Shown piece after piece: positions 2,304-47,784 of a DNA stretch of 64,000 nucleotides; within the stretch, counting starts at the first letter, position 1, and each line of letters opens with the position of its first letter. Below the pieces are notes generated by a model. The model worked only from the letters and a program-made list of their open reading frames with translations, made no database searches and had not been told where the DNA came from. The translations under genes were made by a program, and so were the position numbers. This DNA comes from an uncultured Burkholderiales bacterium (GTDB lineage: Bacteria; Actinomycetota; Acidimicrobiia; IMCC26256; JACPCJ01), in assembly GCA_964438505.1 (NCBI GenBank), contig CAYTKN010000013.1, positions 7,626-71,625 on the forward strand. The letters run 5' to 3'.

Positions 2304-2462
2304 GAGACCCCACCTCTTCGAATTCAGTAGCAGCAAATGTGAACGAGGTCACGCTACCCGACCGCCAAATTGAGTACAAGGGATTTGGCGGAGGGGCGGA
2401 ACGCCGCGGCCGGGCCGCCGCGATCGGGCCGCCGCGATCGGATCAGCGGTCCCCGGAAGGTC

Positions 2463-2507
2463 CTGTGTGTGCATTTGGTGGCGCTATGCGCCACAATGCA
2501 CACACAG
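2463..2507 (-). terminator. Imperfect hairpin downstream of the 2593..3042 gene
   Basis: CTGTGTGTGCATT-TG-GTGGCGC-TAT-GCGCCAC-AATGCACACACAG gives 13 + 7 bp of stem with a 2-nt bulge and a 3-nt loop. It lies 86 nt past the minus-strand stop. No T/U tract follows. Confidence 0.4.
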
Positions 2508-2512
2508 GGGAG

Positions 2513-3042: not shown

Positions 3043-3180
3043 GCCGCTCCTCCTCGGGTCGAGAGCTGCTGGGTCATCTCGCGTGCCTTCGCAGTGCCTT
3101 TGCTGCCTTCGTGATGTCTCGATGCCTCCGGTGGGCGGCGCGACGCCTCGCGGCGTTCCCGTCGTCCTCGCCGGGACGCC

Positions 3181-6200: not shown

Positions 6201-7591
6201 GGTGCCGCCCCTCCGCCTCGGTCGCGCGCGACGCCGTCGGCGACGAGGTCGAGGCGGCGGGCGAGGTCGGTGCGGAGCCTCCGGCGCGGGTCGAGGCGGT
6301 CGCGCGTCCGGCGCCACGTCTCGACTCGGGGGTACATGGAGCGGAAGGCGTCGGGGCGGAGGCACGCGTCCTTGGCGAGGTAGACGCGGCCTCCCGCGGC
6401 GGCGACCTGCTCGTCGAAGCCGGCGAGCAGCGGACGCAGGCGGGGGTGGCCGGCGGGGAGATCGAGGGCGAGGGTCCATCCCTCGATGGGGAACGAGAGG
6501 GGTGCGGCGTCGCCGGCGCCGAAGCGCTTGAGGACGGCGAGCCCGCAGGGGACCCGCTCGCGCTCGAGCGCTTCGAGGACGGCGGCGAGCAGGCCGGTGC
6601 AGGTGGGCGGCACCGCGAGCTGGTACTGGACGAACCCGCGGGGCCCGTAGAGGGCGGGCCAGTCGGCGACGCGGTCGAGGGGGTAGAAGAACGTGTCGAG
6701 GGCGGTGAGGCGCGTGGTCGGACGCCGGGGCGCGGCGCGCCAACGCATCTCGTTGAGCATGCGGACCGATGCGCGGTTGACGAGGCCGACCGGGGAGGGC
6801 GGGACGGCTCGGCGGGTGCGGGACGCGAGGTCGAGGGGGTGGTGACGGAGCGCCTCGGGGAGCTCGTCGAGGGTGGCGTGCTCGGCGGTGGAGACGACGC
6901 CGCGGCCCAGCCGGCTGCCGGTCGCCGTGGTGTCGAGCCAGGCGACGGCGTAGCGGTCGGGGGTGGAGGCGAGCGCGTCGAGGGCGGCGTCGAGGTCGGG
7001 CGCGCGTTGCTCGGTGACCCGCATCGTGGCGGTCTCGACGGGTCGCAACGCCAGGGTGGCGCGGGTGACGACGCCGGTGAGGCCCATCCCGCCGACGGTC
7101 ACCCGGAACGTGTCGGGGTCGTGGCGCTCGTCGACGTCCCGCACGCCCTCGGGGGTGACGAGGCGGAAGCTGTCGACGTGGCGGCCGAAGCTGCCGTCGG
7201 CTGGGTGGTTCTTGCCGTGCACGTCGGCGGCGATCGCCCCGCCGACGGTGACGTGCGCGGTGCCGGGGGTGACGGGCACGAACCAGCCTTCGGGGACGAC
7301 CGCTCGGGCGAGCTCGCTGATCGACGTGCCGGCGCCGACGGCGACCCGTCCGGTGGCGGGATCGAGGGCGAGCGGACCCTTCAGGCCGGTGGTGTCGAGC
7401 ACGTGGCCGCCGGCGTTCAGCGCGGCGTCGCCGTAGCTGCGGCCGAGGCCTCGGGGGGCGACCCCCCGCGCGGCGCCGTCGTCGAGCGCGGCGGCGACGT
7501 CGCCGGTGCAGGCGACGGGGACGACGTCGCTCGCCGATCGGAGAGTCCGGCCCCATCCGCTGAGGACGCGGCGCTCGGCGGGCTCGGGCAT
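6197..7591 (-). CDS. dprE1: FAD-dependent decaprenylphosphoryl-beta-D-ribose 2'-oxidase (DprE1-like)
   Basis: 464 aa counted from ATG 7591. GWGRT, RGLGRSYGD, VTVGGAIAADVHGKNH and SFPIEGW are collinear with mycobacterial DprE1 as I recall it. Confidence 0.85.
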   Translation of the reverse strand: MPEPAERRVLSGWGRTLRSASDVVPVACTGDVAAALDDGAARGVAPRGLGRSYGDAALNAGGHVLDTTGLKGPLALDPATGRVAVGAGTSISELARAVVPEGWFVPVTPGTAHVTVGGAIAADVHGKNHPADGSFGRHVDSFRLVTPEGVRDVDERHDPDTFRVTVGGMGLTGVVTRATLALRPVETATMRVTEQRAPDLDAALDALASTPDRYAVAWLDTTATGSRLGRGVVSTAEHATLDELPEALRHHPLDLASRTRRAVPPSPVGLVNRASVRMLNEMRWRAAPRRPTTRLTALDTFFYPLDRVADWPALYGPRGFVQYQLAVPPTCTGLLAAVLEALERERVPCGLAVLKRFGAGDAAPLSFPIEGWTLALDLPAGHPRLRPLLAGFDEQVAAAGGRVYLAKDACLRPDAFRSMYPRVETWRRTRDRLDPRRRLRTDLARRLDLVADGVARDRGGGAAP

Positions 7592-8782: not shown

Positions 8783-10618
8783 GTGCTCGGTGGGCCCAAT
8801 CGCGCGATCGCACCTTCCCTCCCCCGGTCGCGGCGCTCGGTCGCCGACCGTGACCGCTCCGCGGTCGGCTCGACGGCGGCGTGCCTGGGTGGACGCCTGG
8901 GAGCGCGCCTCGGTGGACTCCTGGGCGGGCCCGCCGGCGACCGGACGGTCGCCTGGCTGCTGTTCGCCGCGTTCGTGGTGGTGCGCCTGCCGTTCCGGGC
9001 GGAGATCCTGGTCAACTGGGACGCGGTCAACTACGCCTTCGGGGTGGAGGGCTTCGATCTCCGCCACCACGAGCCGCACCCGCCCGGCTACCTGGGGTAC
9101 GTGCTGGCGGGTCGGATGTTGGCGCCGTTGGTCGGCGGGCCGAACGCGGCGTTGACGCTGCTGAGCGTGCTGGCGGGCGCGGCGGTCCCGGCGGTGCTCT
9201 ACGTGCTCGCCCGGCGGTTCGTCGCGCGCCGCGAGGCACTGGTCGTGGCGGTGCTGCTCGGCACCGCTCCGCTGCTCTGGTACTACAGCGTCGTCGCGTT
9301 GAGCTACCAGGTCGGGGCGGCGCTGGCGTTGGGGGTGGCGTGGGCGTGCCACGTGGCCCGTGTCGAGGTGTCGGAGCGCCACCTGTTGGCCGCCGCGGCG
9401 CTGCTGGCGGCGTTGGGGGCGGTCCGCCAGACGGACCTGGTGTTCCTGCTGCCGCTGTTCGGGTACGCGGCGCTGGCGCACGGGGCGGCGGCCCGTGTCC
9501 GGGCGGCGGCGGCGTTGGGCGGCCTGTGCGTCGTCTGGCTGGTGCCGTTGCTGTGGTTGTCGGGTGGCCCGGCCGCGTATGTGGACCTCTCGTCGGATCT
9601 GGCCGCGCTTGCGGGCAACCGGACGTGGCTGCTCTCGCTCGACTTGGTGGGCACGGCGCAGAACTTCCTGCTGGTCGGTGCGGGGGTGCTGCTCGGCCTC
9701 TTCGCGGCCGTCCCGCTGCTGGTGTGGACGTGGCGGCGAGGCGTGGGGCGCCGGCTGGTCGGCGCGCAGCGGCGGTTCCTGTGGCTGTGGGCGGGCCCGG
9801 CGCTGGCCGCGTTCCTGCTGGTCCACACGGGCCAGCTCGGCTACGTGCTGCTGGTGCTGCCGCCGCTGTACTTGGTGCTCGCCGTGAGGCTGGCGGCCAC
9901 CCGCGAGGGTCTGCCCGCGGGCGAGGCCCGGCCCGCGGGAGGATCCGGGCGCGAGCAGGCTCGTGGCGGTAGACGACGGCGCCTCGCCGGCGCCGCGGCG
10001 AGCCCGGCGCTGGTCGTGTCGGCGGTGGCGCTCCCGGCGGTGAACGTGGCGGGGTTCGTGGCGCTCCCGGAGGCGTCGAGCGCGTACGCGGAGGCGACGG
10101 AGCGACCGCGGGATCCCTCGCGGGCGGCGATCCTGCGGCGGATCCGCGAGTACGACGTCGGGTTGAACGACGCCTACTGGTCGGCGGTGCGTCGGGGGGT
10201 CGAGCGCTTCGACCCGGACACGACGGTGCTGCTGGCCCGACCGAGCAGCGAGGGGAGCTTCCGGCACCTGGCGTTCTACCTGCGCGACTACCGGGTCGAG
10301 GGCGTGGGCCACGACCGCGAGGGCGACCTCGGGGCGCTGTTCAACGCCCGGGACGGGTCGACCGACTACGAGGTCGACGGGCTCTCCGAGGCGGATCCGG
10401 TGTTGCGTCTGCCGGCGGGGGTGCGCCACGTCCTGACGGTGGAGGGGTTGGTGCAGCGCGACTTCGACACCGACGGGCTGGCGTCGGTGAGCTGGGGGCT
10501 GCCCGGCGGCGGTCGGATGTTGCACGTCGTGGTGCCCGAGGGCGCGACCCTGCGCTTCGACGGGGACCGCTCCGACGGATGGATCACCGTCGAGCCTTCC
10601 CGCTGGCGAGAGGCCTGA
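8783..10618 (+). CDS. Polytopic GT-C-type glycosyltransferase (ArnT/PMT-like); candidate arabinosyltransferase
   Basis: This is the real part of track ORF 8300..10618. It has many TM helices, a first-loop motif NWDAVNYAFGVEGFDLRHHEPHPPGY, and a soluble C-terminal domain of about 190 aa. It is divergent from the DPA operon. The GTG 8783 start is a guess. Confidence 0.7.
   Translation: MLGGPNRAIAPSLPRSRRSVADRDRSAVGSTAACLGGRLGARLGGLLGGPAGDRTVAWLLFAAFVVVRLPFRAEILVNWDAVNYAFGVEGFDLRHHEPHPPGYLGYVLAGRMLAPLVGGPNAALTLLSVLAGAAVPAVLYVLARRFVARREALVVAVLLGTAPLLWYYSVVALSYQVGAALALGVAWACHVARVEVSERHLLAAAALLAALGAVRQTDLVFLLPLFGYAALAHGAAARVRAAAALGGLCVVWLVPLLWLSGGPAAYVDLSSDLAALAGNRTWLLSLDLVGTAQNFLLVGAGVLLGLFAAVPLLVWTWRRGVGRRLVGAQRRFLWLWAGPALAAFLLVHTGQLGYVLLVLPPLYLVLAVRLAATREGLPAGEARPAGGSGREQARGGRRRRLAGAAASPALVVSAVALPAVNVAGFVALPEASSAYAEATERPRDPSRAAILRRIREYDVGLNDAYWSAVRRGVERFDPDTTVLLARPSSEGSFRHLAFYLRDYRVEGVGHDREGDLGALFNARDGSTDYEVDGLSEADPVLRLPAGVRHVLTVEGLVQRDFDTDGLASVSWGLPGGGRMLHVVVPEGATLRFDGDRSDGWITVEPSRWREA
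10132..10213 (+). repeat. 82-bp direct repeat, left copy (inside the GT-C gene)
   Basis: CCTGCGGCGGATCCGCGAGTACGACGTCGGGTTGAACGACGCCTACTGGTCGGCGGTGCGTCGGGGGGTCGAGCGCTTCGAC is identical to 11969-12050. Coordinates were anchored on ORF frames. Confidence 0.9.
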
Positions 10619-10644
10619 CCAACGGCGCTGAGCGTCCGTCCTCG

Positions 10645-10757
10645 TGGTCAACGATGGGCAACGCCTGTCGAGTGGCATGCGCCAATGTTTGTGGGCATGT
10701 GCTTGCAATAGTTGGCATTCACCAATTATCATTGGCACTTGGCCATGATATTGGTCA
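10645..10757 (+). repeat. Iteron-like array of eight TGG(N)CA motifs in a locally AT-rich gap
   Basis: Motifs start at 10645, 10655, 10673, 10692, 10713, 10733, 10740 and 10752, mostly 10 or about 20 bp apart. Line 10681-10740 is 43% GC by hand count. The array lies upstream of the NTase gene. Confidence 0.6.
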
Positions 10758-10847
10758 ATCGCCAGTATCTTGAGCCATCACCAACAACGAGGTCATGGCG
10801 CTCGCCGGGCGATCGGCGCGCCCTCACCGTGAGAGGAGCACCGGAGC

Positions 10848-11483
10848 GTGCTGTTGCAACAACCCCTGGCGACGGTGACCCCGACGGTCGACGGTGACGT
10901 GCTCGCTGCGCTCGCTCATGCGGAGCGGGCCTTCAGTTCCCGAGCGCTGCACCGCGTCATCGGTCGATACTCTCCAGAAGGGGTTCGCCGCTCGCTCAAC
11001 CGACTCGTCGCCCAGGGGATCGTCACGGTGGAGGACGCCCCTCCCGCGAAGCTCTACCGCTTGAACCGCTCGCACCTCGCTGCACCCCACGTGATCGGGC
11101 TCGCGTCGATGCGCGACGAGCTCCTGAGGCGGCTCCGTAATCGGCTCGCCACGTGGGCTCCTGCACCCGTCTACGCTGCGTTGTTCGGTTCAGCAGCGCG
11201 TGGGGACATGAGTGAGGACAGCGACATCGATCTCTTCGTGGTGCGACCTCGAGACGTGGTGTTGGACGACCCGGGCTGGACGGAACAGGTGAACGCGCTC
11301 GCCTCCGATGCTTTCGACTGGACGGGCAACGATCTCCGCACGTTCGAGCTCGGCGACGGTGAGGTCGTCGCCGAGATCGATGCCGGGAGCGGCACGGTTC
11401 GGGCGATCCATGCAGAGGGGATCCCCCTCGCCGGAGATCACCGGTATCTCGACCGTCGGATGAGGCTCGCAGATCATGCCTGA
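10848..11483 (+). CDS. wHTH-nucleotidyltransferase fusion (MntA-like putative antitoxin)
   Basis: FGSAARGDMSEDSDIDLFVV matches the Pol-beta NTase motif GS-x9-DxD. The N-terminus looks like a winged helix (VRRSLNRLVAQGIVTVEDAPPAKLYRLN). The GTG start has GAGAGGAG about 10 nt upstream. Confidence 0.75.
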   Translation: MLLQQPLATVTPTVDGDVLAALAHAERAFSSRALHRVIGRYSPEGVRRSLNRLVAQGIVTVEDAPPAKLYRLNRSHLAAPHVIGLASMRDELLRRLRNRLATWAPAPVYAALFGSAARGDMSEDSDIDLFVVRPRDVVLDDPGWTEQVNALASDAFDWTGNDLRTFELGDGEVVAEIDAGSGTVRAIHAEGIPLAGDHRYLDRRMRLADHA

Positions 11484-11871
11484 GCGCACGTGCGACGCAG
11501 CCACTCGACGCGGACGCGCGAGGAAGGCCGACGAGTTTCGGCTCGCAGCAGAGGTGATCGAGGAGTACGCCGGCTCAGACGACGATTTGAACGATGCGTA
11601 CGTCACCCTTTGCGTCCACGCAGGGATCGCGGCAGCCGACGACGTCTGTTGTGCACGTCTCGGGGTGCATCACGAAGGTCAACGGCATCACGACGCGATC
11701 GCCCTCCTCGCCCGCGCGTCGACGTCGCTGACCCGCGACTTGGAGATGCTGCTCAAGTTGAAGACCCGCAGTGGATACAGCGCTGTTCGCGCTTCATCGA
11801 CCGACCGCAAGCAGGCTCGGCGAGCGATGAATCGGCTGGTGGACGCTGCACGAGAGAGCGCCGCCGGCTGA
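11476..11871 (+). CDS. HEPN-like protein (HepT-like putative toxin)
   Basis: It overlaps the NTase gene by 8 nt (ATGCCTGA). It is an all-helical-looking 131 aa protein with ARLGVHHEG (Rx4H). Gene order and size fit MNT-HEPN pairs, but the motif match is only partial. Confidence 0.55.
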   Translation: MPERTCDAATRRGRARKADEFRLAAEVIEEYAGSDDDLNDAYVTLCVHAGIAAADDVCCARLGVHHEGQRHHDAIALLARASTSLTRDLEMLLKLKTRSGYSAVRASSTDRKQARRAMNRLVDAARESAAG

Positions 11872-11968
11872 CCGGTGTACGAATCCGGCAGCCGGCAGCG
11901 CTTCCCGAGTCGACGAAACCTGCCGGGCCGGCACGGGCGGGCCAGGCGGGAACGGTGGGCGGTGCCGC

Positions 11969-12050
11969 CCTGCGGCGGATCCGCGAGTACGACGTCGGGT
12001 TGAACGACGCCTACTGGTCGGCGGTGCGTCGGGGGGTCGAGCGCTTCGAC
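11969..12050 (+). repeat. 82-bp direct repeat, right copy
   Basis: Identical to 10132-10213. Confidence 0.9.
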
Positions 12051-12098
12051 GGGGACCGCTCCGAGGGCCAGATCCGGGTCGACCCACCCGGGCGGTAG
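11969..12098 (+). pseudogene. Remnant 3' end of the GT-C gene (or of a paralogue), with an internal deletion
   Basis: It encodes LRRIREYDVGLNDAYWSAVRRGVERFD|GDRSEGQIRVDPPGR*. It joins the equivalents of 10132-10213 and 10562-10618 at the shared 10-mer GCGCTTCGAC. After 12064 the tail is only about 65% identical to the intact gene. Confidence 0.7.
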
Positions 12099-12145
12099 GC
12101 CCGCGCTGCGAGCCGGCCAGCCCGCCTCCCGGCGTTCGGACACGG

Positions 12146-13999
12146 ATGCGTTTCCCCTCGTGTGTGTCGGGGCATCAGGGGGAGATGAGCCGAGATCAGG
12201 GGTTCCGACGGTTGCTGCCACGGGCTCCCCTCCCCTCGCGGGGGCCGCCCGAGGCAGGCCGCGCACGTCCGGTGACGATCGGGGCGGTGGCCGCGGCGCT
12301 GACGGCCGCGGCGTTGGGCACGGCGGCGACGACCGGGGTGATCGGCGGCACCGACGACGACGGCGGCGGCGGGGACTCCGCGGACTCGGCGATGTCGGAG
12401 GGCTCCGAGCTCGTGGAGTCGGTCGAGGTCACCCGCGACCCCGACCACCCACTCCGAGGGTCGCTGCGGGTGCGCACGACGGCGCCGGCGGCGGTGACGG
12501 TGGAGGTGCGGACACCGGACGGGCACGGCTTCTCGGTGTCGCCGCCCCGGGCGGCCTCCCGCGACCGGACCGTGCCGCTCCTCGGGCTGCGAGCCGACGA
12601 GGAGTACGCGGTGAGCGTGGAGCTGCTGGCCGAGGGCAGCGACGAGGCCGAGACGGTGGAGGCGGGCACGGTGCGCACCGGTTCGCTCCCCGGGGAGCTC
12701 CCGCCGCTGGAGGTGGCGGCGGCCGGGGGCTCCGAGGCGACCCTCACGCTCTTCGACGTCGCCTACCGGGCGCCCGACGGCGAGGAGGAGGCCCGTGACC
12801 ACGGCTACCTGGTGGTCGTCGACGAGGAGGGCGAGGTGGTCTGGTTCCACGGCGAGGAGCAGTCGATCCAGGACGCCCGCCGAACGGCGGACGGCACGTT
12901 CCTGTTCACCACCAACGAGACGGGCGCCCGCGAGGTGTCGCCGACCGGTGAGCTGGTCGACGAGTGGGTGGGCAGGAGCGGCGCGGAGGTCGCGCCCGAG
13001 GACGACTTCGGCCGCCCGGTGGCGGGAGGAGACGCGGTGCGGGTCGCGACCGACCAGATGCACCACGAGATCGGCGAGCTGCCGAATGGCAACCTCGTCA
13101 CCCTCAGCCGGGAGGTCCGCAGCGTCGAGTACCCGGAGTCGCTCTGCGACGACGAGGAGTTCGACGGCAGCGAGGACGTCGGCGGGGACGTGGTGGTGGA
13201 GTTCGATCCCGACACGGGCGAGGTGGTCCGGGAGATCTCGCTGTTCGACGTGATCGATCCGCTGGACAACCTGGAGCGCACCCGGGCCTCGGAGTTCTGT
13301 AGCACGTACCTCGAGGACGTGTACCCGGAGAGCTGGCCGGTGCGCGACTGGACGCACGCCAACGCGGTGGTGCTCGACGAGGGCCGAAACGCGCTGATCG
13401 TCTCGGCGCGCCACACCGATTCGCTGCTGGCGATCCGCGACGCCGACGACGAGGACGGCCCGGCGGGCGAGCTGCTGTGGGAGCTCGGCGAGGGCGGCGA
13501 CTTCGAGCTCGAGGGCGAGGGCGAGTGGTTCCTCCACCAGCACGCCCCGCAGGTGCTGGCGGACGGCTCGATCCTGCTCTACGACAACGGCAACGAGCGC
13601 CCGGGGACCTCGCTGGAGGGCGGCGGCGAGGCTCCGTACACGCGCGCGGTGCGGTACCGCCTCGACGAGGAGGCGAGCACCGCCGAGCAGGTCTGGGAGC
13701 ACCGGGCGCCGCCGGGCGAGGAGCCGGTCTATGCCCCCTACGTGGGCGACGCCGATCTGACGCCGCAGGGGACGGTGCTGCTCGCCCACGGTGGACTGCT
13801 GGAGCCGCCGGCCCACTCCCCCGCGAAGCCGGACGTGGTGCAGTGGGCGAGGATCCTGGAGGTCGACGAGACGACCGGCGAGCCGATCCTCGACGTGCGC
13901 GTCGGCGACCCCGAGGGGGATGCCGGCTGGCGGGCGTACCGGGCCGAGCGGATCCCGACCCTGTACCCGGCGGGCTACGTGGTCGAGCCGCTCGCCTGA
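12146..13999 (+). CDS. Arylsulfotransferase (ASST) family protein, membrane-anchored or secreted
   Basis: Track ORF. It has an N-terminal hydrophobic anchor, then a beta-propeller-like body with HHEIGELPNGN, WTHANAV and FLHQHAPQVL...YDNGN, which resembles PAPS-independent ASST proteins. An alternative start is ATG 12185. Confidence 0.7.
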   Translation: MRFPSCVSGHQGEMSRDQGFRRLLPRAPLPSRGPPEAGRARPVTIGAVAAALTAAALGTAATTGVIGGTDDDGGGGDSADSAMSEGSELVESVEVTRDPDHPLRGSLRVRTTAPAAVTVEVRTPDGHGFSVSPPRAASRDRTVPLLGLRADEEYAVSVELLAEGSDEAETVEAGTVRTGSLPGELPPLEVAAAGGSEATLTLFDVAYRAPDGEEEARDHGYLVVVDEEGEVVWFHGEEQSIQDARRTADGTFLFTTNETGAREVSPTGELVDEWVGRSGAEVAPEDDFGRPVAGGDAVRVATDQMHHEIGELPNGNLVTLSREVRSVEYPESLCDDEEFDGSEDVGGDVVVEFDPDTGEVVREISLFDVIDPLDNLERTRASEFCSTYLEDVYPESWPVRDWTHANAVVLDEGRNALIVSARHTDSLLAIRDADDEDGPAGELLWELGEGGDFELEGEGEWFLHQHAPQVLADGSILLYDNGNERPGTSLEGGGEAPYTRAVRYRLDEEASTAEQVWEHRAPPGEEPVYAPYVGDADLTPQGTVLLAHGGLLEPPAHSPAKPDVVQWARILEVDETTGEPILDVRVGDPEGDAGWRAYRAERIPTLYPAGYVVEPLA

Positions 14000-14020
14000 C
14001 AGACGGTCCCGAGCGGCGCC

Positions 14021-14046
14021 GTGATCGGCACGGTCGTGCCGATCAC
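14021..14046 (+). terminator. Perfect GC-rich hairpin after the ASST gene
   Basis: GTGATCGGCAC-GGTC-GTGCCGATCAC forms an 11-bp stem with a 4-nt loop, 22 nt after the stop. No T tract follows. It could equally be a hipB operator. Confidence 0.45.
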
Positions 14047-14133
14047 ACACGCGTTCCGGACACGCGGTGACATCCGAACGAGAGATCAGAACGATCGTGC
14101 CGCGGACCTCCTCGATGCGGTAGGATCGTACCG

Positions 14134-14403
14134 ATGACGACACCTCGGCAGCACGATCGTTCCGATCTCGGTGTGCTCGGAGATGCGATCCGCCGGCGTC
14201 GGCGCCGGCTCGGGTTGAGCCAGCAGGAGGTCGCGGACCTGGCGGGCTGCTCCGAGCGGACGGTCCGTGCCGTCGAGCACGGCAAGGCGACAGTGCGCCT
14301 CGACGTGTTGCAGCAGGTCATGGCGACGGTCGGTCTCGCGTTCACCCTGGGCCAGGGCAACGGCGAGATCGTGGTGCCCGATGAGCATCGTGGTGTCCGA
14401 TGA
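14134..14403 (+). CDS. hipB: HipB-like XRE-family HTH antitoxin
   Basis: LGDAIRRRRRRLGLSQQEVADLAGCSERTVRAVEHG reads as an XRE-type HTH. The gene overlaps hipA by ATGA. Confidence 0.8.
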   Translation: MTTPRQHDRSDLGVLGDAIRRRRRRLGLSQQEVADLAGCSERTVRAVEHGKATVRLDVLQQVMATVGLAFTLGQGNGEIVVPDEHRGVR

Positions 14404-15647
14404 GCGCTGAGCGTCCACTCCCCCATGGCGGGGCGAACGTCACGGCGGCCGACGTCTACAAGGGCGAGCGCCTCGCCGGACGCCTGACCCGGGCGGGTGG
14501 CAGCGTCGAGTTCTCGTACCTCGACGGCTACCGCCGCGAGGGAGGCCCGCCGGTGGGGTTCCGCCTGCCCGTCACGAGCGAGCCGGTCGTCGCCACCGGC
14601 GGCAGCGTCCCGCCCTTCTTCGCGAACCTGCTCCCCGAGGGAGCTCGGTTGCACGCCCTGGTGGGGCGGGCCAAGACGTCGGCCGACGACATGTTCACCC
14701 TGCTGCTCGCGGTCGGCGCCGACTGCGTCGGCGACGTGCGAGTCGTGCCGACCGGCGCGGAACCCCCACGCCTCGAGCCCTCGCAGGCGGTCACCTCGTG
14801 GTCGGAGGTGGCCTTCGACGACCTGCTCGAGCGGAGCATCTCACCGGCGGTCGACGACCACGACCCGGCCGCGCTACCGGGCGCCCAGGAGAAGGTGTCC
14901 GACAGCATGATCACGTTCCCGGTGGACGGAGGGATCGGGCCGGCGATCCTGAAGCTCAACCCTCCGAGGTTCCCGAGGATCGTGGAGAACGAGCACTTCT
15001 TCCTCCGGATGGCTCGGGCCTGCGGAATCGAGTCGGCCGCGGCCCATCTGGTCCACGACCGCGACGGTCGCTCGGGGCTGCTCGTCGAGCGCTTCGACCG
15101 CTCGGTGCGCCCGGACGGCACCGTCGAGCGCCTGGCACTTGAGGACGGGTGCCAACTCTGCGACGTCTACCCGGCCGACAAGTACCGCCTGCGTACCCTC
15201 GAGCTCGCCCGGGCGATCGCCGAGCTCGCGACCCCGGCCGTGGTCGCCGTCGCGGGCCTCGTCGAGCTCGTGGCGTTCAGCTTCCTGATCGGCAACGAGG
15301 ACCTCCACGCCAAGAACGTCAGCCTGCTGGTGGAGCGCGACGGGCTGGTCAGGTTCTCCCCCGGCTACGACATCCTCACCACGTTGCCGTATCCGGTCGA
15401 CCATCACATGGCGCTGGAGTTCGAGGGCCGGCAGAACAAGCTGGCGCGGGACGACTTCCTGTCGTTCGCGGAGCGCATGGGGGTGGGGCGGCGGGCCGTC
15501 GAACGCTCCCTCGACCGGATCTGCGACGTCGCTCCGGCGTGGCTGGATCGCCTCCACGAGATCGGCTTCGAGGACGCCACGACCGAGCGCCTCGCCGTGG
15601 AGATGCGCGCCCGCCGCGACCGCCTCGGCGTCTCGGGAGGCCCGTGA
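14400..15647 (+). CDS. hipA: HipA-family serine/threonine kinase toxin
   Basis: LPGAQEKVS and the catalytic-loop motif IGNEDLHAKNVSL are present. Its 415 aa length, with HipA N- and C-terminal regions, fits the family. Confidence 0.9.
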   Translation: MSAERPLPHGGANVTAADVYKGERLAGRLTRAGGSVEFSYLDGYRREGGPPVGFRLPVTSEPVVATGGSVPPFFANLLPEGARLHALVGRAKTSADDMFTLLLAVGADCVGDVRVVPTGAEPPRLEPSQAVTSWSEVAFDDLLERSISPAVDDHDPAALPGAQEKVSDSMITFPVDGGIGPAILKLNPPRFPRIVENEHFFLRMARACGIESAAAHLVHDRDGRSGLLVERFDRSVRPDGTVERLALEDGCQLCDVYPADKYRLRTLELARAIAELATPAVVAVAGLVELVAFSFLIGNEDLHAKNVSLLVERDGLVRFSPGYDILTTLPYPVDHHMALEFEGRQNKLARDDFLSFAERMGVGRRAVERSLDRICDVAPAWLDRLHEIGFEDATTERLAVEMRARRDRLGVSGGP

Positions 15648-15698
15648 CCCTCGAGGCAGGGGAACGTCTCCCGCCGCACCGACGACCCGCCGGACTCC

Positions 15699-15747
15699 AA
15701 TGTGTGAGTGTGGTGCAGTCATATTGACTGCACCACACTCACACATT
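15699..15747. repeat. 49-nt perfect palindrome, copy 1
   Basis: AATGTGTGAGTGTGGTGCAGTCA-TAT-TGACTGCACCACACTCACACATT has 23-bp arms. It starts 52 nt after the hipA stop and ends 55 nt before the MFS start. Confidence 0.95.
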
Positions 15748-15801
15748 CGGAAGCTCGGGTGGCGTGCTGCGGGGGCGCCGGGAGCTCCGCCGTAGCCTGA
15801 C

Positions 15802-17133
15802 GTGATGGCCTCGTCACGACCGGCGTCGCGCGCCGCCGGACGCTTCCTGGGTTGGCGGGTCCTCGCCCTGGCCTCGATCACCTCGGCGTTGAGCGGGCCC
15901 GGTCAGACGATCGGGGTGTCGGTGTTCATCGACCACGTGGTCGCCGACCTCGACCTGAGCCGCTCGGTGGTCTCCAGCGGGTACCTGGTCGGCACCCTCG
16001 TCGGCGCGACGGCGTTGCCGGTGGTGGGCCGCCAGATCGACCGTTTCGGTGTCCGCCGGGCGATGGCGGTCATCGCCGCCGCGTTCTCGCTGGCGCTGGT
16101 GGCGATGGCGGGTGTGCAGGGGATCGTGACGTTGACGGCGGGGTTCGTCGGCATCCGGATGCTGGGGCAGGGGTCGCTGTTCCTCACCAGCACCGTCGCG
16201 GTGCAGCTCTGGTTCGAGCGCCGCCGGGGGTTCGCGATCGGAGTCCTCGCCACGGTCTCGAGCGCGCTGATGGCGCTGGTGCCCGTGGGCCTCGACATGG
16301 TGATCGATGCCGCGGGTTGGCGGGTGGCGTGGCTGGTCGCAGCGGCGGTGGTGGCGGGGGTGGTGGTGCCCATCGCGGTCTTCGGGATCGTCGACCGGCC
16401 CGCGGACGTCGGTCAGCTCCCCGACGGCGACGACCCCACCGACGCCGACGAGCCCGCCGACGGCGACGACCCCACCGAGGGCGTCGAGCCCACGAACGGC
16501 AGCGGCGCGGAAGGCGACGGGCGTGCGCGTGCGGGGCCGTCCGTGCCGTCGCTCACCCGGGCGGAGGCGGTGCGGACGGTCCCGTTCTGGGTGCTGGCGA
16601 TCGTGGCTGCGCTGTCCGCGATGTTCGTCACGGCGCTGAACTTCCACCAGATCTCGTTGCTGGGCCAGGCGGGGCTCTCGAGCACGGCGGCCGCCGCCTT
16701 GTTCCTCCCCCAGATGATCGGCTCGACGGTGGTGGCGGTCGGCCTCGGTGCGCTCAGCGACCGGTTCGGCCGGCGCGGGTTGCCGGCGACGGCGATGGTG
16801 CTGCTGGCGTCGACGTTGCTGGTCGGCGCGAACGTGTCGCCGGGGCCAGTGGTGGTGGCCTACGCGATGCTCATCGGCGCGACGACGGGGGCGATGCGGA
16901 CCACCAGCGGCACGTTGATGCCCGCGTGGTTCGGGGTGGCGCACCTGGGTTCGATCCAGGGCTCGTTGACGCTGGTGCTGGTGGTGGGCTCGTCGGTCGG
17001 CCCGGTCGCGCTCGCGCTCGGCGAGCGCTGGTTGGGTGGCTACGACGCCGCGCTGCTCGCCGCCGTGGTGGTGCCGGTGGTGGCCGCGTGGTTCGCCTGG
17101 AGTGGCGCGGCCCGGGCCCCGCGGGGTCGCTGA
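15802..17133 (+). CDS. MFS transporter
   Basis: Track ORF of 443 aa with about 12 TM segments and an acidic central loop containing the repeat DGDDPTDADEPADGDDPTEG. The start is GTG 15802 or ATG 15805. Confidence 0.85.
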   Translation: MMASSRPASRAAGRFLGWRVLALASITSALSGPGQTIGVSVFIDHVVADLDLSRSVVSSGYLVGTLVGATALPVVGRQIDRFGVRRAMAVIAAAFSLALVAMAGVQGIVTLTAGFVGIRMLGQGSLFLTSTVAVQLWFERRRGFAIGVLATVSSALMALVPVGLDMVIDAAGWRVAWLVAAAVVAGVVVPIAVFGIVDRPADVGQLPDGDDPTDADEPADGDDPTEGVEPTNGSGAEGDGRARAGPSVPSLTRAEAVRTVPFWVLAIVAALSAMFVTALNFHQISLLGQAGLSSTAAAALFLPQMIGSTVVAVGLGALSDRFGRRGLPATAMVLLASTLLVGANVSPGPVVVAYAMLIGATTGAMRTTSGTLMPAWFGVAHLGSIQGSLTLVLVVGSSVGPVALALGERWLGGYDAALLAAVVVPVVAAWFAWSGAARAPRGR

Positions 17134-17168
17134 CGCCGGGCGGTTTCCACCTGCGCCGGGCGCACTCC

Positions 17169-17217
17169 AATGTGTGAGTGTGGTGCAGTCAATACGACTG
17201 CACCACACTCACACATT
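17169..17217. repeat. 49-nt perfect palindrome, copy 2
   Basis: AATGTGTGAGTGTGGTGCAGTC-AATAC-GACTGCACCACACTCACACATT starts 36 nt after the MFS stop. Confidence 0.95.
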
Positions 17218-17286
17218 CGGGAGATGGGTCGCCTCGGGTGGGAGCGGGCTCTCGAAGCTGGAGCAGGATCTCTAAGCTGGCGCCCC

Positions 17287-18036
<750 letters not shown>

Positions 18037-18058
18037 GCCCGCGGGCCGGAGGCGAGCG

Positions 18059-20599
18059 GTGCTGAAGATCGCGGTCCGCGGGATCCGGAACCACAAGGCC
18101 CGCTTCGCGGCGACGACGTTCGCGGTGGTCCTGGGCGTCTCGTTCGTGGTGGCGAGCTTCGTCCTGGCCGACACGATCCGCAGCGCGTTCGACGATCTGT
18201 TCTCCGAGATCACCGAGGGTGTGGAGCTGTCGGTGCGCTCGAGCGACGCGATCGGGTCGTCGGGTCCGGAGGGCTCGCAGCGACGTCCGGTCCGTGAGGA
18301 GCTCCTCGAGGTGGTCCACGGCACCGAGGGTGTGGCGGTCGCCTCCGGCCAGGTGGAGGGGTTCGCTCGGGTGGTCACGCCGGATGGTGAGCCTGTGACC
18401 GCGACGGGCGCGCCGCTGATCGGGGTGGGGTGGGGCCCGCACGAGGAGTTGTCACCGATCACCCTCGAGCGGGGGGCGAAGCCGGACGGGCCCGGGGAGG
18501 TCGCCGTCGACCGGGGGACGGCGGAGGACTTCGACCTCGAGGTGGGCGACCGGGTGACCGTCGAGGTGGCGACGGGTGTGGTGCCGGCGGAGCTCGTCGG
18601 GATCTTCACCTTCGGCGAGACCAACAGCCTGCTCGGCGCGCGGCTCACCGCGTTCGAGCCGGAGGCAGCGCAGGCGGCGTTCGACTCGGAGGGGTTCTTC
18701 CAGTCGATCGCCGTCGCGCTCGAGCCGGACGCGGACGTCGGCGCGGTCGCGCAGCGCCTGGAGGGGGTGCTGCCCGACGGGCTCGAGGTGGTGACCGGCC
18801 AGACGGTCGCCGACGAGAACGCCTCCGAGGTCAACGAGTTCGTCGACGTGTTCGGCAACGTGCTGTTGGGGTTCGCGGCGGTGGCGCTGTTCGTGTCGGC
18901 GTTCTACATCCACAACACGTTCACGATCATCCTCGGGCAGCGGACCCGCGAGTTGGGGTTGCTGCGCGCGGTGGGGGCGTCCCCCGGCCAGGTGACGCGC
19001 TCGGTGCTCGCCGAGGCGGTGGTGATCGGGGTGGTCGCATCGGTGGTCGGGGTGGGCTTCGGTCTCCTCACCGCCCTCGGTCTGGAGGCGCTGCTGGGGA
19101 TGGCGGGCCTCGACTTCCCGGCGACGGGTTTGGAGCTGCGGGCGCGGAGCTGGGTGCTGGCGGTCGTGGTGGGGGTGGGTGTCACGCTGCTGTCGTCGCT
19201 GGCGCCGGCGAGGCGGGCGGGACGGGTGTCCCCGGTCGTGGCCATGGGCGGCGCGGCGGCGGCTGTCGGCGCCGGGTCGCGGCGGTCGGTCGTCGGGGTG
19301 GTCCTGGTGGGTGTGGGCGCGGTGCTGATCGCGCTGGGGTTGGCGGTGGCGCAGGGCGCGCCGGCGGTGCTGGGGTCGCTCGGGGTGGGTGCGGTCGCCG
19401 TGTTCGTGGGGATCGCGCGGTTGGGTCCGCTCTTCGCCGGGCCGGTGGCGGCGGTGTTGGGTGCTCCGCTGCGGCGGGTGTTCGGGATGCCGGGCCGGTT
19501 GGCGACGGAGAACGCGTCGCGGAACCCGGAGCGCACGGCGTCGGCTGCGTCCGCGCTGATGATCGGTCTGGCGTTGGTGACGATGGCGGCGGTCGCGGGC
19601 CGCTCGATGACGGCGACGTTCGCGGACGCCGTGGAGGAGAGCGTCGCCGCCGATCTGGTCGTCTCGGCGAGCGGGTTCGGGTCGTTCAGTCCGGCGTTCG
19701 CGGAGGAGATCGCCGAGCTGGAGGAGGTGGGTGCGGTCACGCCGGTGCGGTTCGGATCGTTCCGCTTCGGCGGCGAGGAACGTTCGGCGGTGGGGGTGGA
19801 TCCCCGCGGCGCGCAGGCGCTCTTCGAGCTGGACGCGCTGGCGGGGTCGCTCGGTGACCTGGACGCGTCGTCGCTCGCCGTCCACGAGGACCCGGCGGAG
19901 GATCTGGGTCTGGGCGTCGGCGACGAGGTGGACGTCGAGTTCACCCGCTCGGGGGAGACGACGCTGCGGGTCGCGGCCGTCTACTCGGACGCGACGCTGG
20001 TGGGCAACTACCTGGTGAGCACCGAGGGGTGGGGTGAGCGCTTCAACGTGGCGACCGACTCGCTGGTGCTGGTGGGGGCGGCCGAGGGTGTGGACGTCGA
20101 GGAGCTCGAGGAGGCGACCACTCGGGTGGCGGAGGCGTATCCGGCGCTCGCCGTCGAGAACCGGGCCGAGTTCCGGGAGAGTCAGCAGGACCAGTTCTCG
20201 CAGATCCTCGTGGCGGTGAACGGCATGTTGGGCCTGGCGGTGCTGATCGCCGGGTTGGGGATCGCGAACACGATGGCGTTGTCGGTGTTCGAGCGGACCC
20301 GCGAGCTGGGCCTGCTGCGCGCGGTCGGGATGACGTCGCGCCAGGCGCGGCGGATGATCCGGTGGGAGTCGGTCGTGGTGGCGGTCTTCGGGGGTGTCCT
20401 CGGCGTGGCGGTGGGGCTCCTCTTCGGGGTGGTCGTGGTGGCGGCGTTGCCGTCTTCGGTGGCGGCGCGGTTGGTGGTGCCGACGACGACGGTGGTGCTC
20501 ACGCTGGTCGCTGCGGGCGTGGTCGGCTTGCTGGCGGCGATCTTCCCGGCGCGGCGCGCGGGTCGGCTGCGGGTGCTGAGCGCCATCGCCCACGAGTAG
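18059..20599 (+). CDS. ABC transporter permease with two FtsX domains (MacB-type)
   Basis: Track ORF of 846 aa. The N-terminus is MLKIAVRGIRNHKARFAATTFAVVLGVSFV. The motif ERTRELGLLRAVG occurs twice. GGAGG lies 8 nt upstream of the GTG start. Confidence 0.85.
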   Translation: MLKIAVRGIRNHKARFAATTFAVVLGVSFVVASFVLADTIRSAFDDLFSEITEGVELSVRSSDAIGSSGPEGSQRRPVREELLEVVHGTEGVAVASGQVEGFARVVTPDGEPVTATGAPLIGVGWGPHEELSPITLERGAKPDGPGEVAVDRGTAEDFDLEVGDRVTVEVATGVVPAELVGIFTFGETNSLLGARLTAFEPEAAQAAFDSEGFFQSIAVALEPDADVGAVAQRLEGVLPDGLEVVTGQTVADENASEVNEFVDVFGNVLLGFAAVALFVSAFYIHNTFTIILGQRTRELGLLRAVGASPGQVTRSVLAEAVVIGVVASVVGVGFGLLTALGLEALLGMAGLDFPATGLELRARSWVLAVVVGVGVTLLSSLAPARRAGRVSPVVAMGGAAAAVGAGSRRSVVGVVLVGVGAVLIALGLAVAQGAPAVLGSLGVGAVAVFVGIARLGPLFAGPVAAVLGAPLRRVFGMPGRLATENASRNPERTASAASALMIGLALVTMAAVAGRSMTATFADAVEESVAADLVVSASGFGSFSPAFAEEIAELEEVGAVTPVRFGSFRFGGEERSAVGVDPRGAQALFELDALAGSLGDLDASSLAVHEDPAEDLGLGVGDEVDVEFTRSGETTLRVAAVYSDATLVGNYLVSTEGWGERFNVATDSLVLVGAAEGVDVEELEEATTRVAEAYPALAVENRAEFRESQQDQFSQILVAVNGMLGLAVLIAGLGIANTMALSVFERTRELGLLRAVGMTSRQARRMIRWESVVVAVFGGVLGVAVGLLFGVVVVAALPSSVAARLVVPTTTVVLTLVAAGVVGLLAAIFPARRAGRLRVLSAIAHE

Positions 20600-20640
20600 C
20601 GCCTCGCCGGACCGGTGACGTTCGGGGCCGGACGAGCTCC

Positions 20641-20689
20641 AATGTGTGAGTGTGGTGCAGTCAATACGACTGCACCACACTCACACATT
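20641..20689. repeat. 49-nt perfect palindrome, copy 3
   Basis: Identical to copy 2. It starts 42 nt after the permease stop and ends 17 nt before the stop codon of the minus-strand vapC remnant. Confidence 0.95.
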
Positions 20690-20706
20690 GGGAAGGGGTT
20701 CGGCCG

Positions 20707-20783: not shown

Positions 20784-21020
20784 TCACTCGGTAGCGACGG
20801 GCTCGAGCAGCTCGTCGTCGTCGACGAGGTAGGTGATGCTGCCTCGGAGGTCGTCTCGTACCGGGGCGCGCAGCTCCTCCGGCGATTCGACGGGCACCAC
20901 CTTGGCCACGGGCCGGCCACGCTTGGTGACGATCAGCTCGTCGCCGCTCCGAGCGATGTCGTCGAGGAGCTTGAGGCAGGTGGCCCTGAACCGGCTGGCA
21001 GAGATCTCGCGGGTGTCCAT
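20784..21020 (-). CDS. Phd/YefM-family antitoxin
   Basis: This is the last 78 aa of track ORF 20784..22202: MDTREISASRFRATCLKLLDDIARSGDELIVTKRGRPVAKVVPVE..., a typical Phd/YefM N-terminal fold sequence. Confidence 0.75.
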   Translation of the reverse strand: MDTREISASRFRATCLKLLDDIARSGDELIVTKRGRPVAKVVPVESPEELRAPVRDDLRGSITYLVDDDELLEPVATE

Positions 21021-21068
21021 GCCGCCACGGTAGTCATCTGACCAGCAGCACCGATGCGGCCTGTGGGT

Positions 21069-21089
21069 GTCCCCCGCGTCGCGGGGGAC
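21069..21089 (-). terminator. GC hairpin after the alpha/beta hydrolase gene
   Basis: GTCCCCCGCG-T-CGCGGGGGAC is a 21-nt palindrome, giving an effective stem of about 8 bp. It lies 18 nt downstream of the minus-strand stop at 21107. Confidence 0.35.
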
Positions 21090-21106
21090 GCCCACCGGGG
21101 GCGCGA

Positions 21107-24344: not shown

Positions 24345-24755
24345 TCAGGGCGCGGGCGGGGTCAGCTCCACGGCTGTGTGGGCCCGTACTGCCCGTGCGA
24401 GGCGCTCGTCGGCGGTGAGGAGTGTTCCGCCGGTGAGCTCCGCGAGCGCGACATAGCTGGCGTCATAGGGCGAGAAGTTGGAGCGGAGCTCGAACAGCCG
24501 AGCGAGCAACGACTGGTGGCCGTGTCTGGTCACCGGAAGATCCAGGTAGTCCTGGAGCGCTTCGGTCGCGCGACGACTGGACATGAGGTCGCGGCGTAGC
24601 CCACGTCGCAGGCCGGCGGCGATCTCGACGTCGCAGAGCGCCGGGACGTGGACGTCGACATCCGGGTTCCGGAGCACCTCGCGGGCCGGCGGGGCTGCTT
24701 CGGTGCCGAGGAGGTACTCGAGGACCGCCGACGCGTCGGCAACGACGAGCTTCAG
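24345..24755 (-). CDS. vapC: PIN-domain toxin VapC, apparently with a non-canonical CTG start
   Basis: The frame is open upstream of the track start at GTG 24677. It encodes LKLVVADASAVLEYLLG..., which carries the conserved first Asp. CTG 24755 overlaps the antitoxin stop as CTGA. The C-terminus is LLTADERLARA. Confidence 0.75.
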   Translation of the reverse strand: MKLVVADASAVLEYLLGTEAAPPAREVLRNPDVDVHVPALCDVEIAAGLRRGLRRDLMSSRRATEALQDYLDLPVTRHGHQSLLARLFELRSNFSPYDASYVALAELTGGTLLTADERLARAVRAHTAVELTPPAP

Positions 24756-24991
24756 GACGCGTCCCTTTCTCTGCGCTCCTCGGCGATGAGGTCGGCGGCT
24801 CCGCCTCCGAGCGACACGGGGTCTCTGCCCTCGATGCGGTCGAGCACCTCGGACGCTGGAGGTCGGGCAAGCTCTCGTTCGAGCAGACTCTGGATGTAGT
24901 CGGTGAGGGACTGGCCGCGCGCGTTCGCACGCCTCGTGAGCTCGCGGTGCACCTGGTCCGGGACGTTGCGCACCTGGATCATCTTGGACAT
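24752..24991 (-). CDS. vapB: Ribbon-helix-helix antitoxin (VapB/FitA-like)
   Basis: 79 aa counted from ATG 24991: MSKMIQVRNVPDQVHRELTRRANARGQSLTDYIQSLLEREL, a typical RHH antitoxin sequence. Confidence 0.8.
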   Translation of the reverse strand: MSKMIQVRNVPDQVHRELTRRANARGQSLTDYIQSLLERELARPPASEVLDRIEGRDPVSLGGGAADLIAEERRERDAS

Positions 24992-25003
24992 GCGATCAGC
25001 GTG

Positions 25004-25022
25004 CCACATGTGGATCACATGT
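25004..25022 (-). promoter_or_regulatory. Candidate RHH operator
   Basis: The 10-bp perfect palindrome CCACATGTGG (25004-25013) is followed by a second CACATGT (25016-25022). The site lies 13-31 nt upstream of the antitoxin ATG. Confidence 0.3.
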
Positions 25023-25115
25023 TCAACGAGGGTTCGCTGTGTGCCGCTCCCCCATGGCGACTCCGGGGCATCGGACTGGAGTTCCGGTCCAGTGCGGTCC
25101 CGCGCGGTCCGGCGC

Positions 25116-25517
25116 TCAGGCCGGCGGTGGTTCGACGCGCTCGACGGTGTCGACCCGGTCGAGGGATCGGTCGAAGGAGGCGACGGTGCCGACGCCGGTG
25201 CTCTCAGCGCACGCCACGAGGTAGGAGTCGGCGAAGTCGATCCGGTCGGTCTCGTACACCTCGACGGCGCGGAGCAACAGCGCGGGGTCGACGCAGGTGA
25301 TCGGCTCGAAGGCAACGATCGAGCGGAGGGCTTCGGCGACGTCTTCGCGGGCCGCTTCGTAGAACGACTCGAGGACGGACACGGTCTCGGCGGCGACGAG
25401 GTCGGTGAGCAACAGGTCGGGTCCGGCGGCGAGGTACGCGGTCGCGCGTGCGGCGGTCTCCGGCGGGTCGCCGGTGAGGTGCCGGACCAGGATGTTCGTG
25501 TCGACGAACGCGCTCAT
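25116..25517 (-). CDS. vapC: PIN-domain toxin VapC
   Basis: MSAFVDTNILVRHLTGD...DFADSYLVACAE...VASFDRSL over 133 aa. ATG 25517 overlaps the antitoxin stop (ATGA). Confidence 0.85.
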   Translation of the reverse strand: MSAFVDTNILVRHLTGDPPETAARATAYLAAGPDLLLTDLVAAETVSVLESFYEAAREDVAEALRSIVAFEPITCVDPALLLRAVEVYETDRIDFADSYLVACAESTGVGTVASFDRSLDRVDTVERVEPPPA

Positions 25518-25762
25518 CGACGCCGCGCGCCCCGCTCGGCTCGACTGCGCCGGAGGACCTCGTCCCACGCGGCGTTGCGCTTCGCTGCCGGCACGCGGAT
25601 CGTTCCGGCGAGGTCGAGGAGGTCGGGGGTGCGCGCGAGCACGGCCCGGTCGCCTTCGACGCGGAAGACGACGGCGTCGCCCTCTTCGATGCCGAGCGCG
25701 TCGCGAACGGCCTTGGGGACGGTCACCTGCCCCTTCGAGGTCATCTTCGCGGCAGCATCCAT
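25514..25762 (-). CDS. AbrB/MazE/SpoVT-family antitoxin
   Basis: MDAAAKMTSKGQVTVPKAVRDALGIEEGDAVVFRVEGDRAVL is a looped-hinge-helix type sequence. AAGGAG lies 7 nt upstream of the start. The inverted repeat TCCTTAC/GTAAGGA (25770-25795) overlaps the RBS. Confidence 0.8.
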   Translation of the reverse strand: MDAAAKMTSKGQVTVPKAVRDALGIEEGDAVVFRVEGDRAVLARTPDLLDLAGTIRVPAAKRNAAWDEVLRRSRAERGARRR

Positions 25763-47775: not shown

Positions 47776-47784
47776 GCGAGTGGC

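Follow-up and report, generated by a model that had tools for sequence, protein, structure and literature searches.

A perfect 49-nt palindrome downstream of three neighbouring genes in an uncultured actinobacterial lineage: a candidate lineage-restricted repeat element

Bacterial miniature inverted-repeat transposable elements (MITEs), for example Correia/NEMIS, RUP and ERIC, are able to alter transcript ends, and classical repetitive extragenic palindromes (REPs), which are short, imperfect and present in tens to hundreds of copies per genome, carry the tetranucleotide GTAG at their 5' side and usually flank the gene of their RAYT transposase. REP and REPIN elements are mobilised by RAYT transposases of the HUH Y1 type (PMC3116915, PMC3337134). 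A U tract is missing from 353 of the 535 structured transcript 3' ends of Streptomyces clavuligerus (PMC8269248), and hairpins without one did not cause mycobacterial RNA polymerase to terminate in vitro (PMC3993855); whether such 'I-shaped' hairpins terminate transcription or only protect the 3' end is disputed. Template switching, finally, homogenises the arms of inverted repeats and inverts their spacers (PMC8604942, PMC8794818). Here we describe a perfect 49-nt palindrome that occurs three times in a 64-kb stretch of metagenomic DNA (contig CAYTKN010000013.1, positions 7,626 to 71,625; hereafter the window), the proteins of which have their closest named relatives in metagenome-assembled genomes of Acidimicrobiia/Acidimicrobiales. 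The literature searched describes no REP-like elements from this actinobacterial lineage. We consider the palindrome, with a probability of about 0.55, to be a young, lineage-restricted repeat of about 52 nt (TCC plus the 49-nt palindrome) that was recently inserted at three sites and forms a hairpin at transcript 3' ends, and the finding is best filed as an intergenic palindromic repeat element restricted to its lineage.

The palindrome and its closest counterparts

The arm of the palindrome, AATGTGTGAGTGTGGTGCAGTC, starts on the plus strand at 15699, 17169 and 20641, and its reverse complement at 15726, 17196 and 20668 (Table 1). These six matches, found with up to three mismatches allowed, compare with 0.00 expected from 100 shuffles, and at the same tolerance no diverged arm copy was found in the rest of the 64 kb. 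Arm length is 22-23 nt: copy 1 has 23-nt arms around the loop TAT (equivalent to 22-nt arms around ATATT, with one base pair more), while copies 2 and 3 share one core with 22-nt arms and the loop AATAC, and pairing in copy 3 reaches 24 nt (CCAATG..CATTGG). All three cores are directly preceded by CTCC and directly followed by (C)GGRAG. They are the longest inverted repeats of the window and its only long perfect ones, with a GC content of about 55% in a surrounding region of 70-75%. The cores begin 51 nt after the stop codon of hipA, 35 nt after that of the MFS gene and 41 nt after that of the FtsX permease gene; copies 1 and 2 precede the putative -10 boxes of the MFS and ABC ATPase genes by 45 and 55 nt, and copy 3 lies between the convergent stops of FtsX (20599) and a vapC remnant (20707). 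The palindromes thereby appear to sit between three separate transcription units, hipBA, MFS and ABC/FtsX. In RNA folding, a check that an earlier note on this DNA had proposed with 70-nt windows, the hairpins reached, in windows of 81 nt, -53.5 to -60.5 kcal/mol (z = -8.8 to -10.7). No T tract lies 3' of any copy, and a scan of 13.9-21.2 kb flagged no canonical terminator or sigma-70-type promoter, at the copies or elsewhere in that interval. That note had already listed the three 49-nt copies with their arms and loops, which direct reading and the arm search bore out, as reading of the sequence did for its flanking CTCC and (C)GG(G/A)A(G/A). Its distances of 52, 36 and 42 nt past plus-strand stops agree with the 51, 35 and 41 intervening nucleotides given above, and its statement that there is neither a T tract nor a further copy in the 64 kb held on reading, terminator scan and arm search alike.

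The element is present in independent Logan assemblies of three sequencing runs. Short Logan contigs from SRR9010616 and SRR26668061 encode exact window proteins and end or start within the palindrome loops, and de Bruijn assemblies are expected to break at a repeated perfect palindrome. A second sample, L024, retains copy 2 as well, with 99.7% identity. A library adapter or an assembly artefact was ruled out because contigs broken at the loops come from separate runs at the same genomic site and a third run holds a diverged copy, with a single-nucleotide difference, in a relative. The observation is confirmed as real and statistically secure. An ATG opens each arm, giving a reading frame that begins MCECGAV... 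on both strands (15700, 17170 and 20642 on the plus strand; 15746, 17216 and 20688 on the minus strand), which we treated as spurious. One of these frames is continuous with the ABC ATPase gene (17170-18036) and could mislead gene callers as to its start.

By behaviour the closest described systems are REP/REPIN elements and small MITEs, and by position the U-tract-less 3' hairpins of actinobacteria. Like REP/REPIN elements, the palindromes are short, extragenic, placed just 3' of genes and lineage-restricted, come without target-site duplication, would form hairpins in mRNA 3' ends and have a short conserved motif on the 5' side of the hairpin. Unlike them, this motif is CTCC rather than GTAG, the 22-23-nt arms are perfect and not themselves hairpins, the 64 kb hold three copies and one related palindrome, no RAYT gene was found among the scanned open reading frames (ORFs) of the window, and the hosts are high-GC actinobacteria, whereas classical REPs belong to Proteobacteria. 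With MITEs they share a small, non-coding, intergenic unit with terminal inverted repeats that is present or absent between close strains, but they differ in having no target-site duplication and no internal sequence beyond the 5-nt spacer, and no parent insertion sequence (IS) with matching ends was found in the collections searched, to which the host genome itself did not belong. The 'I-shaped' actinobacterial hairpins (PMC8269248) are similar in being stable stem-loops that follow soon after a stop codon between transcription units; the stem here, however, is far longer and of lower GC content than those of the native hairpins of the window, is identical at three sites and is an insertion when compared with relatives. 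Perfect arms and an exact inversion of the 5-nt spacer (AATAC vs GTATT, the latter in a relative described below) recall the correction of quasipalindromes by template switching, a process that accounts for the upkeep of a palindrome but not for the same 52-nt unit at three sites.

Three further classes differ in defining features. A canonical intrinsic terminator consists of a GC-rich hairpin and a U tract of 7-9 nt, and the copies are followed instead by CGGAAG, CGGGAG and GGGAAG. Integron attC sites have R''/L''/L'/R' boxes, a GTTRRRY core, an imperfect stem with extrahelical bases and a nearby intI, while the stem here is perfect, has no extrahelical bases and ends on the right in CACACATT, which contains no GTT core. 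Both half-motifs of the CRP/FNR operator TGTGA-N6-TCACA occur in the palindrome, but 31 nt rather than 6 nt apart.

Occupied, variant and empty sites in relatives

Comparison of the DNA with that of relatives shows recent insertion, polymorphism and apparent decay of the element, without target-site duplication, at similar targets and within one lineage. The copy-1 site was recovered from two close relatives, L019 (about 94% identical to the window in hipBA) and L027 (about 96%; 95.5% by blastn over the wider hipBA-MFS stretch). In L019 the element stands at the orthologous site as AATGCGTG..., in full ...GGCCGGGCACACTCC-AATGCGTGAGTGTGGTGCAGTC-GTATT-GACTGCAC, where the contig ends. It differs in one arm substitution (T5C), in lying 30 nt closer to the hipA stop, and in the loop GTATT, the exact inverse of AATAC. 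A right arm compensating for T5C would read CACGCATT; a non-compensating one, CACACATT, would leave a mismatch. Additional context look-ups returned no further haplotype. L027, which is syntenic with the window through hipBA into the MFS gene, has CTCC-ACG-CACACATT instead (...GCCGGGCGCACTCC-ACG-CACACATT-CGGAAG...), that is, both flanks are kept, 38 nt of the core are missing and only 11 nt of the right arm are left. The junction has a mere 2-nt CA microhomology, as would be expected if an unstable palindrome broke and its ends were joined. In hipBA, 62 informative sites unite the window with L027 and leave L019 outside, vs 36 and 18 for the alternatives, and the same grouping emerges when the sites are polarised with L020 (18 vs 11 vs 5). 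Because of this grouping, loss of the core in L027 is the more parsimonious reading; the conflicting hipBA sites indicate recombination.

For the sites of copies 2 and 3, two more distant relatives are informative. L028 (FtsX protein 77% identical) keeps the ATPase-FtsX pair and, further downstream, the same alpha/beta hydrolase, and L030 (78% identical) keeps FtsX. No palindrome was found in L028 or L030 upstream of the ATPase or downstream of FtsX, and the order ABC-FtsX-hydrolase is therefore ancestral synteny and does not represent a cassette that was inserted. Global alignment with L028 and L030 was uninformative (their downstream genes differ), and the insertion was tested by an anchored junction probe. 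When TCC and the core are removed from copy 3, the rejoined sequence GCCGGACGAGC|GGGAAGGG matches the spacer downstream of FtsX in L028, GCCGGGCGGGC|GGGAAGGG, at 17/19 positions, the only match of at least 15/19 in the L028 locus and one that none of 5000 shuffles equalled. Because its flanks rejoin in this way, copy 3 is, on this comparison, a clean 52-nt insertion (TCC plus core) relative to an empty site.

The earlier note had suggested that the palindromes delimit modules, perhaps as recognition sites of a recombinase, and that MFS and ABC segments might prove present or absent precisely at them. Their position between three transcription units agrees with the first of these statements, but cassette exchange has no evidence in its favour: among the relatives compared, hipBA and MFS are still joined in L027, which lacks the core, and L028 keeps the order ABC-FtsX-hydrolase with no palindrome at these sites. 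Placement between units is where short insertions are tolerated, and the reading of the palindromes as module boundaries or recombination sites is not supported. An orthologue of the MFS gene (81%) in L025 lies in a different neighbourhood with a phd-PIN pair, integrases and sulfatases, and DNA homology there covers only window positions 15772-17120. The 20-kb L025 locus contained no palindromes. It shows a change of gene order around MFS, with no evidence that palindromes mediated it.

The three occupied sites are nearly identical to each other, with the consensus GCCGGRCGNRC^(C)GGRAG: GCCGGGCGCAC^CGGAAG for copy 1 (taken from L027), GCCGGGCGCAC^CGGGAG for copy 2 and GCCGGACGAGC^GGGAAG for copy 3, the 14-nt left flank of copy 2 being identical to that of the L027 copy-1 site. 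This similarity would result either from site-selective insertion or from copying guided by short flank homology. It ends about 14 nt to the left and 6 nt to the right, beyond which the flanks resemble each other at the level of shuffles. Direct repeats or a target-site duplication were found at none of the three junctions, and the window contained no unoccupied target-like sites. We also looked for longer flank similarity, and for similarity between left flanks and reverse-complemented right flanks, and rejected both, 14 of 15 comparisons being no better than shuffles; the marginal exception (p about 0.02) was the left flank of copy 3, which resembled the reverse complement of the right flank of that copy. 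A placement of the cores within loops of older, longer hairpins was likewise rejected, pairing of the outer flanks not being significant (only copy 3, at 20 nt, gave p = 0.035), and the empty sites of L027 and L028 did not fold better than shuffles.

Related palindromes were sought with a covariance model, R1, built from the three copies (type A) and run without filters; the long palindromes that it found have a lower GC content than the genome. The window contains one imperfect relative, B1, which is classed as type B together with a palindrome of L028 (Table 1). B1 lies between two minus-strand ORFs judged to be coding by their codon-position GC, and on the transcribed strand it is directly preceded by GCGC-TCC, likened to the CTCC of copies 1-3. 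The spacer in which B1 lies is crowded with short tandem repeats, namely 14 nt x2.9 (2402-2441), 18 nt x2.7 (GGAGGGCTGGACGACTCA, 2509-2557), 21 nt x2.4 (2603-2652) and 12 nt x2.4 (2664-2692). The L028 palindrome (6164-6217) is perfect over 54 nt, with 27-nt arms and no spacer, and begins a few nucleotides past a stop codon; R1 scored it at 45 bits (6155-6218, E about 7e-9). In L020, a perfect 23-5-23 palindrome (3086-3136) lies 9 nt past a hipBA-methyltransferase operon and scores 21.6 bits. The L028 and L020 palindromes differ in sequence and are alike in geometry. The arms of B1 and of the L028 palindrome agree at 17/18 positions, TGTGTG[T/C]GCATTTGGTGG, at non-orthologous sites in different species, and types A and B have in common the arm motif TGTGTG-N4-6-TGGTG; the motif CGCNNTCCNNTGTGTG is enriched, with 5 matches vs 0.62 expected. 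These data support a clade-level class of palindromes of roughly 50 nt at gene 3' ends, of which the present finding would be one sequence type, and the evidence that links types A and B is suggestive but falls short of proof.

Outside the lineage, the searches were negative. The 18-nt arm core did not occur as a palindrome in 185,579 GTDB representative genomes, in JGI metagenomes or in IMG/VR, the source genome not being among the GTDB and JGI sets; chance single-strand matches numbered 5 in GTDB representatives, 11 in JGI metagenomes and 0 in viral contigs, none of them with a partner arm. Comparison of the type A and B palindromes by blastn with PLSDB plasmids and GenBank phages found nothing, and motif scans of viral contigs returned two unrelated hairpins, which we placed outside the family. 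Across the whole window, Rfam 15 gave nothing at gathering score, and a relaxed threshold only sub-threshold matches to a generic hairpin (miRNA precursor). In every collection searched the element is restricted to its own lineage. The earlier note had stated that a match of the arm to the end of a known IS or MITE would remove its novelty; no such match was found in plasmids, phages, viral contigs, GTDB representatives or JGI metagenomes.

Mechanism and alternative explanations

The note's suggestion of a dispersed REP/MITE-like element fits the behaviour of the palindrome, namely the insertion of copy 3, the presence, variation and partial deletion of copy 1 in 94-96% relatives, and related palindromes at non-orthologous sites in two species; it fits less well in that target-site duplications are missing and no cognate transposase turned up. 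If the palindrome is a young repeat, the unit would have been inserted without target-site duplication into three similar GC-rich sequences 35-51 nt past stop codons, behind three consecutive units, hipBA, MFS and ABC/FtsX, each with its own putative promoter. Spread might be due to a hairpin-specific enzyme acting in trans or to microhomology-guided template switching from a nearby copy; the latter would fit three copies within 5 kb, and would also keep the arms perfectly complementary and flip the 5-nt spacer. Perfect arms and the AATAC/GTATT flip match documented template switching (PMC8604942). Once transcribed, the element would close each unit with a very stable hairpin, which may define or protect the mRNA 3' end and insulate the next leaderless promoter from read-through. 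A role as RNA 3'-end or stability hairpin is plausible, judging from position and stability, and protection or processing of the 3' end would be a more defensible RNA role than termination. A perfect stem of 22-26 bp would be a plausible RNase III substrate.

Several points weigh against this reading. All three copies fall in one 5-kb stretch and the remaining 59 kb have none, a pattern that a purely local event could explain. The likeness of type A and B arms is limited to two short motifs, and any long hairpin adds to the R1 score, as the 21.6 bits of the L020 palindrome illustrate, which has little sequence similarity to the copies. No transposase, RAYT (Y1_Tnp) or integrase domain was found in the Pfam-scanned ORFs of the window. 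Whether L027 has undergone a deletion or keeps the ancestral state was judged from a tree in which some sites conflict. L027 shows that the core is dispensable between hipA and MFS. Lastly, true termination at the hairpins is doubtful because there is no U tract and because of the result with mycobacterial polymerase (PMC3993855).

The alternative that survives best, although we regard it as unlikely, is a palindrome of no function, selfish or neutral, that arose and spread through repair or through template switching during replication and is tolerated only because it landed in non-coding spacers. Dispensability of the core in L027, its absence from the 78% relatives and the lack of any protein partner among the scanned ORFs would all be expected of such DNA; template switching typically leaves perfect arms and an inverted spacer, and the loss of 38 nt at a 2-nt CA microhomology fits the instability of palindromes. 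However, all six palindromes of the class (6/6) lie just 3' of a gene and 0 between divergent genes, a count that at n = 6 is not significant; the asymmetric flanks have one orientation to the upstream gene in 3/3 copies; and a hairpin with a strength of at least -47 kcal/mol will affect the transcript 3' end, whether selected or not.

Rather more doubtful is the view that these are ordinary hairpin terminators made identical by local duplication or gene conversion, with no mobility and no wider family. All copies do lie 35-51 nt past a stop codon, between separate units or convergent genes, they are clustered in 5 kb, the rest of the window having none, and structured 3' ends without a U tract are numerous in high-GC actinobacteria (PMC8269248). 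Yet the native 3' hairpins of the window (14006-14061, 21060-21098) are short, GC-rich and imperfect, whereas the copies have 55% GC in a region of 72%, and related palindromes occur elsewhere in the window and in another species. Relatives have no hairpin at the copy-3 site, and therefore nothing there to convert. The likeness between copies, ending about 14 nt to the left and 6 nt to the right, is too short for RecA-dependent gene conversion, which needs longer homology.

Highly improbable is a binding site for a dimeric protein, either a regulator of the MFS and ABC exporters or a recombinase acting on attC- or pdif-like cassettes: the perfect two-fold symmetry, the centring of copies 1 and 2 about 82 and 94 nt upstream of the putative MFS and ABC starts, and the L025 MFS gene beside integrases, with homology ending near the palindromes, could be cited for it, but copy 3 has no downstream gene to regulate, L027 lacks the core and yet retains both the MFS promoter and the junction of hipA with MFS, ABC-FtsX-hydrolase is an ancestral synteny rather than a cassette, L025 has no palindrome at all, none of the scanned ORFs yielded an integrase or recombinase domain, arms that agree at all 22 positions are better explained by recent copying than by selection on contact bases, and the spacing of TGTGA and TCACA and the absence of attC features are as described above.

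A recently inserted repeat with a 3'-end hairpin thus remains our preferred explanation. If it is right, this is a clear case of a short palindromic repeat early in its spread, in a poorly studied uncultured actinobacterial lineage, with empty, occupied, variant and decayed sites all visible among close relatives. As a natural example it would help to show how perfect hairpins come about and are kept free of mismatches, and how they provide 3'-end structures in genomes without U-tract terminators. What is known of hipBA, MFS and MacB-type transporters is unchanged, and there is no evidence for a new cassette-exchange system. A bolder extension, which we offer as speculation and think improbable, is that uncultured high-GC actinobacteria harbour a family of site-specific hairpin elements not described before, in which perfect palindromes of about 50 nt with TGTGTG..TGGTG arms would be inserted by a hairpin-recognising enzyme, HUH/RAYT-like or other, without target duplication, into a GC-rich target of roughly 17-19 nt just behind genes and would serve as portable 3'-end or insulator modules.

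Gene neighbourhood and other features of the window

The genes around the palindromes are listed in Table 1. Since -10-like boxes (TANNNT) stand 6-8 nt before the start codons, the MFS and ABC ATPase transcripts are suggested to be leaderless. TAGCCT-N6-ATG is kept in the 81% MFS orthologue of L025 (9988-10003), which has very different upstream neighbours, and in L027. The ATPase orthologue of L028 has 249 aa, which fits a start at 17287, and is preceded by TATATT-N7-ATG (L028 about 396-412).

Table 1. Palindromes, genes and putative promoters of the window (positions count from its first nucleotide)
Feature	Position	Strand	Remarks
Type B1 imperfect palindrome	2462..2508	-	CCTGTGTGTGCATTTGGTGGCGC-TAT-GCGCCACAATGCACACACAGG; R1 28.1 bits, E about 1e-4 (2452-2512)
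Arylsulfotransferase	12146-13999	+	upstream of hipBA
HTH gene in hipB position	14134-14403	+	domain search
hipA	14400-15647	+	HipA domain
Copy 1	15689..15753	+	left context GCCGGA, CTCC 15695-15698, core 15699-15747, then CGGAAG
Putative leaderless MFS promoter	15793..15807	+	TAGCCT (15793-15798), 6 nt, ATG 15805
MFS gene	15805-17133	+	ATG start; MFS_1
Copy 2	17155..17223	+	GCCGGGCGCA, CTCC, core 17169-17217, then CGGGAG
Putative leaderless ABC ATPase promoter	17273..17289	+	TAAGCT (17273-17278), 8 nt, GTG 17287
ABC ATPase	17287-18036	+	probably GTG start; ABC_tran
MacB-type FtsX permease	18059-20599	+	MacB_PCD+FtsX
Copy 3	20627..20695	+	GCCGGACGAG, CTCC, core 20641-20689, then GGGAAG
PIN/VapC-like remnant, 26 codons	20707-20787	-	read from sequence, MRSLRVNVLVTRDRRLAGIPDLRTIW
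phd	20784-21020	-	followed downstream by vapC remnant
Alpha/beta hydrolase	beyond phd	-	gene context

The toxin partner of phd is reduced to a 26-codon fragment, read as the C-terminal end of a PIN/VapC protein, and the toxin gene looks degraded, unlike the intact phd-PIN pair of L025. Two more toxin-antitoxin pairs, MazE-PIN and FitA-like RHH-PIN, are encoded on the minus strand at 24345-25762, 4-5 kb from hipBA and phd, a neighbourhood that is dense in toxin-antitoxin genes. Upstream of hipBA, positions 10578-14011 form a variable block within flanking DNA that is 92-96% identical among relatives; its arylsulfotransferase gene is missing in L027 (~96%) and L019 has a DUF4185 gene instead. 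Further along the window, a surface-glycan cluster (45700-62700) carries nonulosonic-acid genes (NeuB/SAF, cytidylyltransferase, DegT aminotransferase and Polysacc_synt_2 dehydratase) and also encodes a capsule-synthesis protein, an ABC exporter and glycosyltransferases. Because GC content drops to 0.59-0.63 in this cluster (lowest at 52-59 kb), compared with about 0.72 elsewhere, its horizontal acquisition is suggested.

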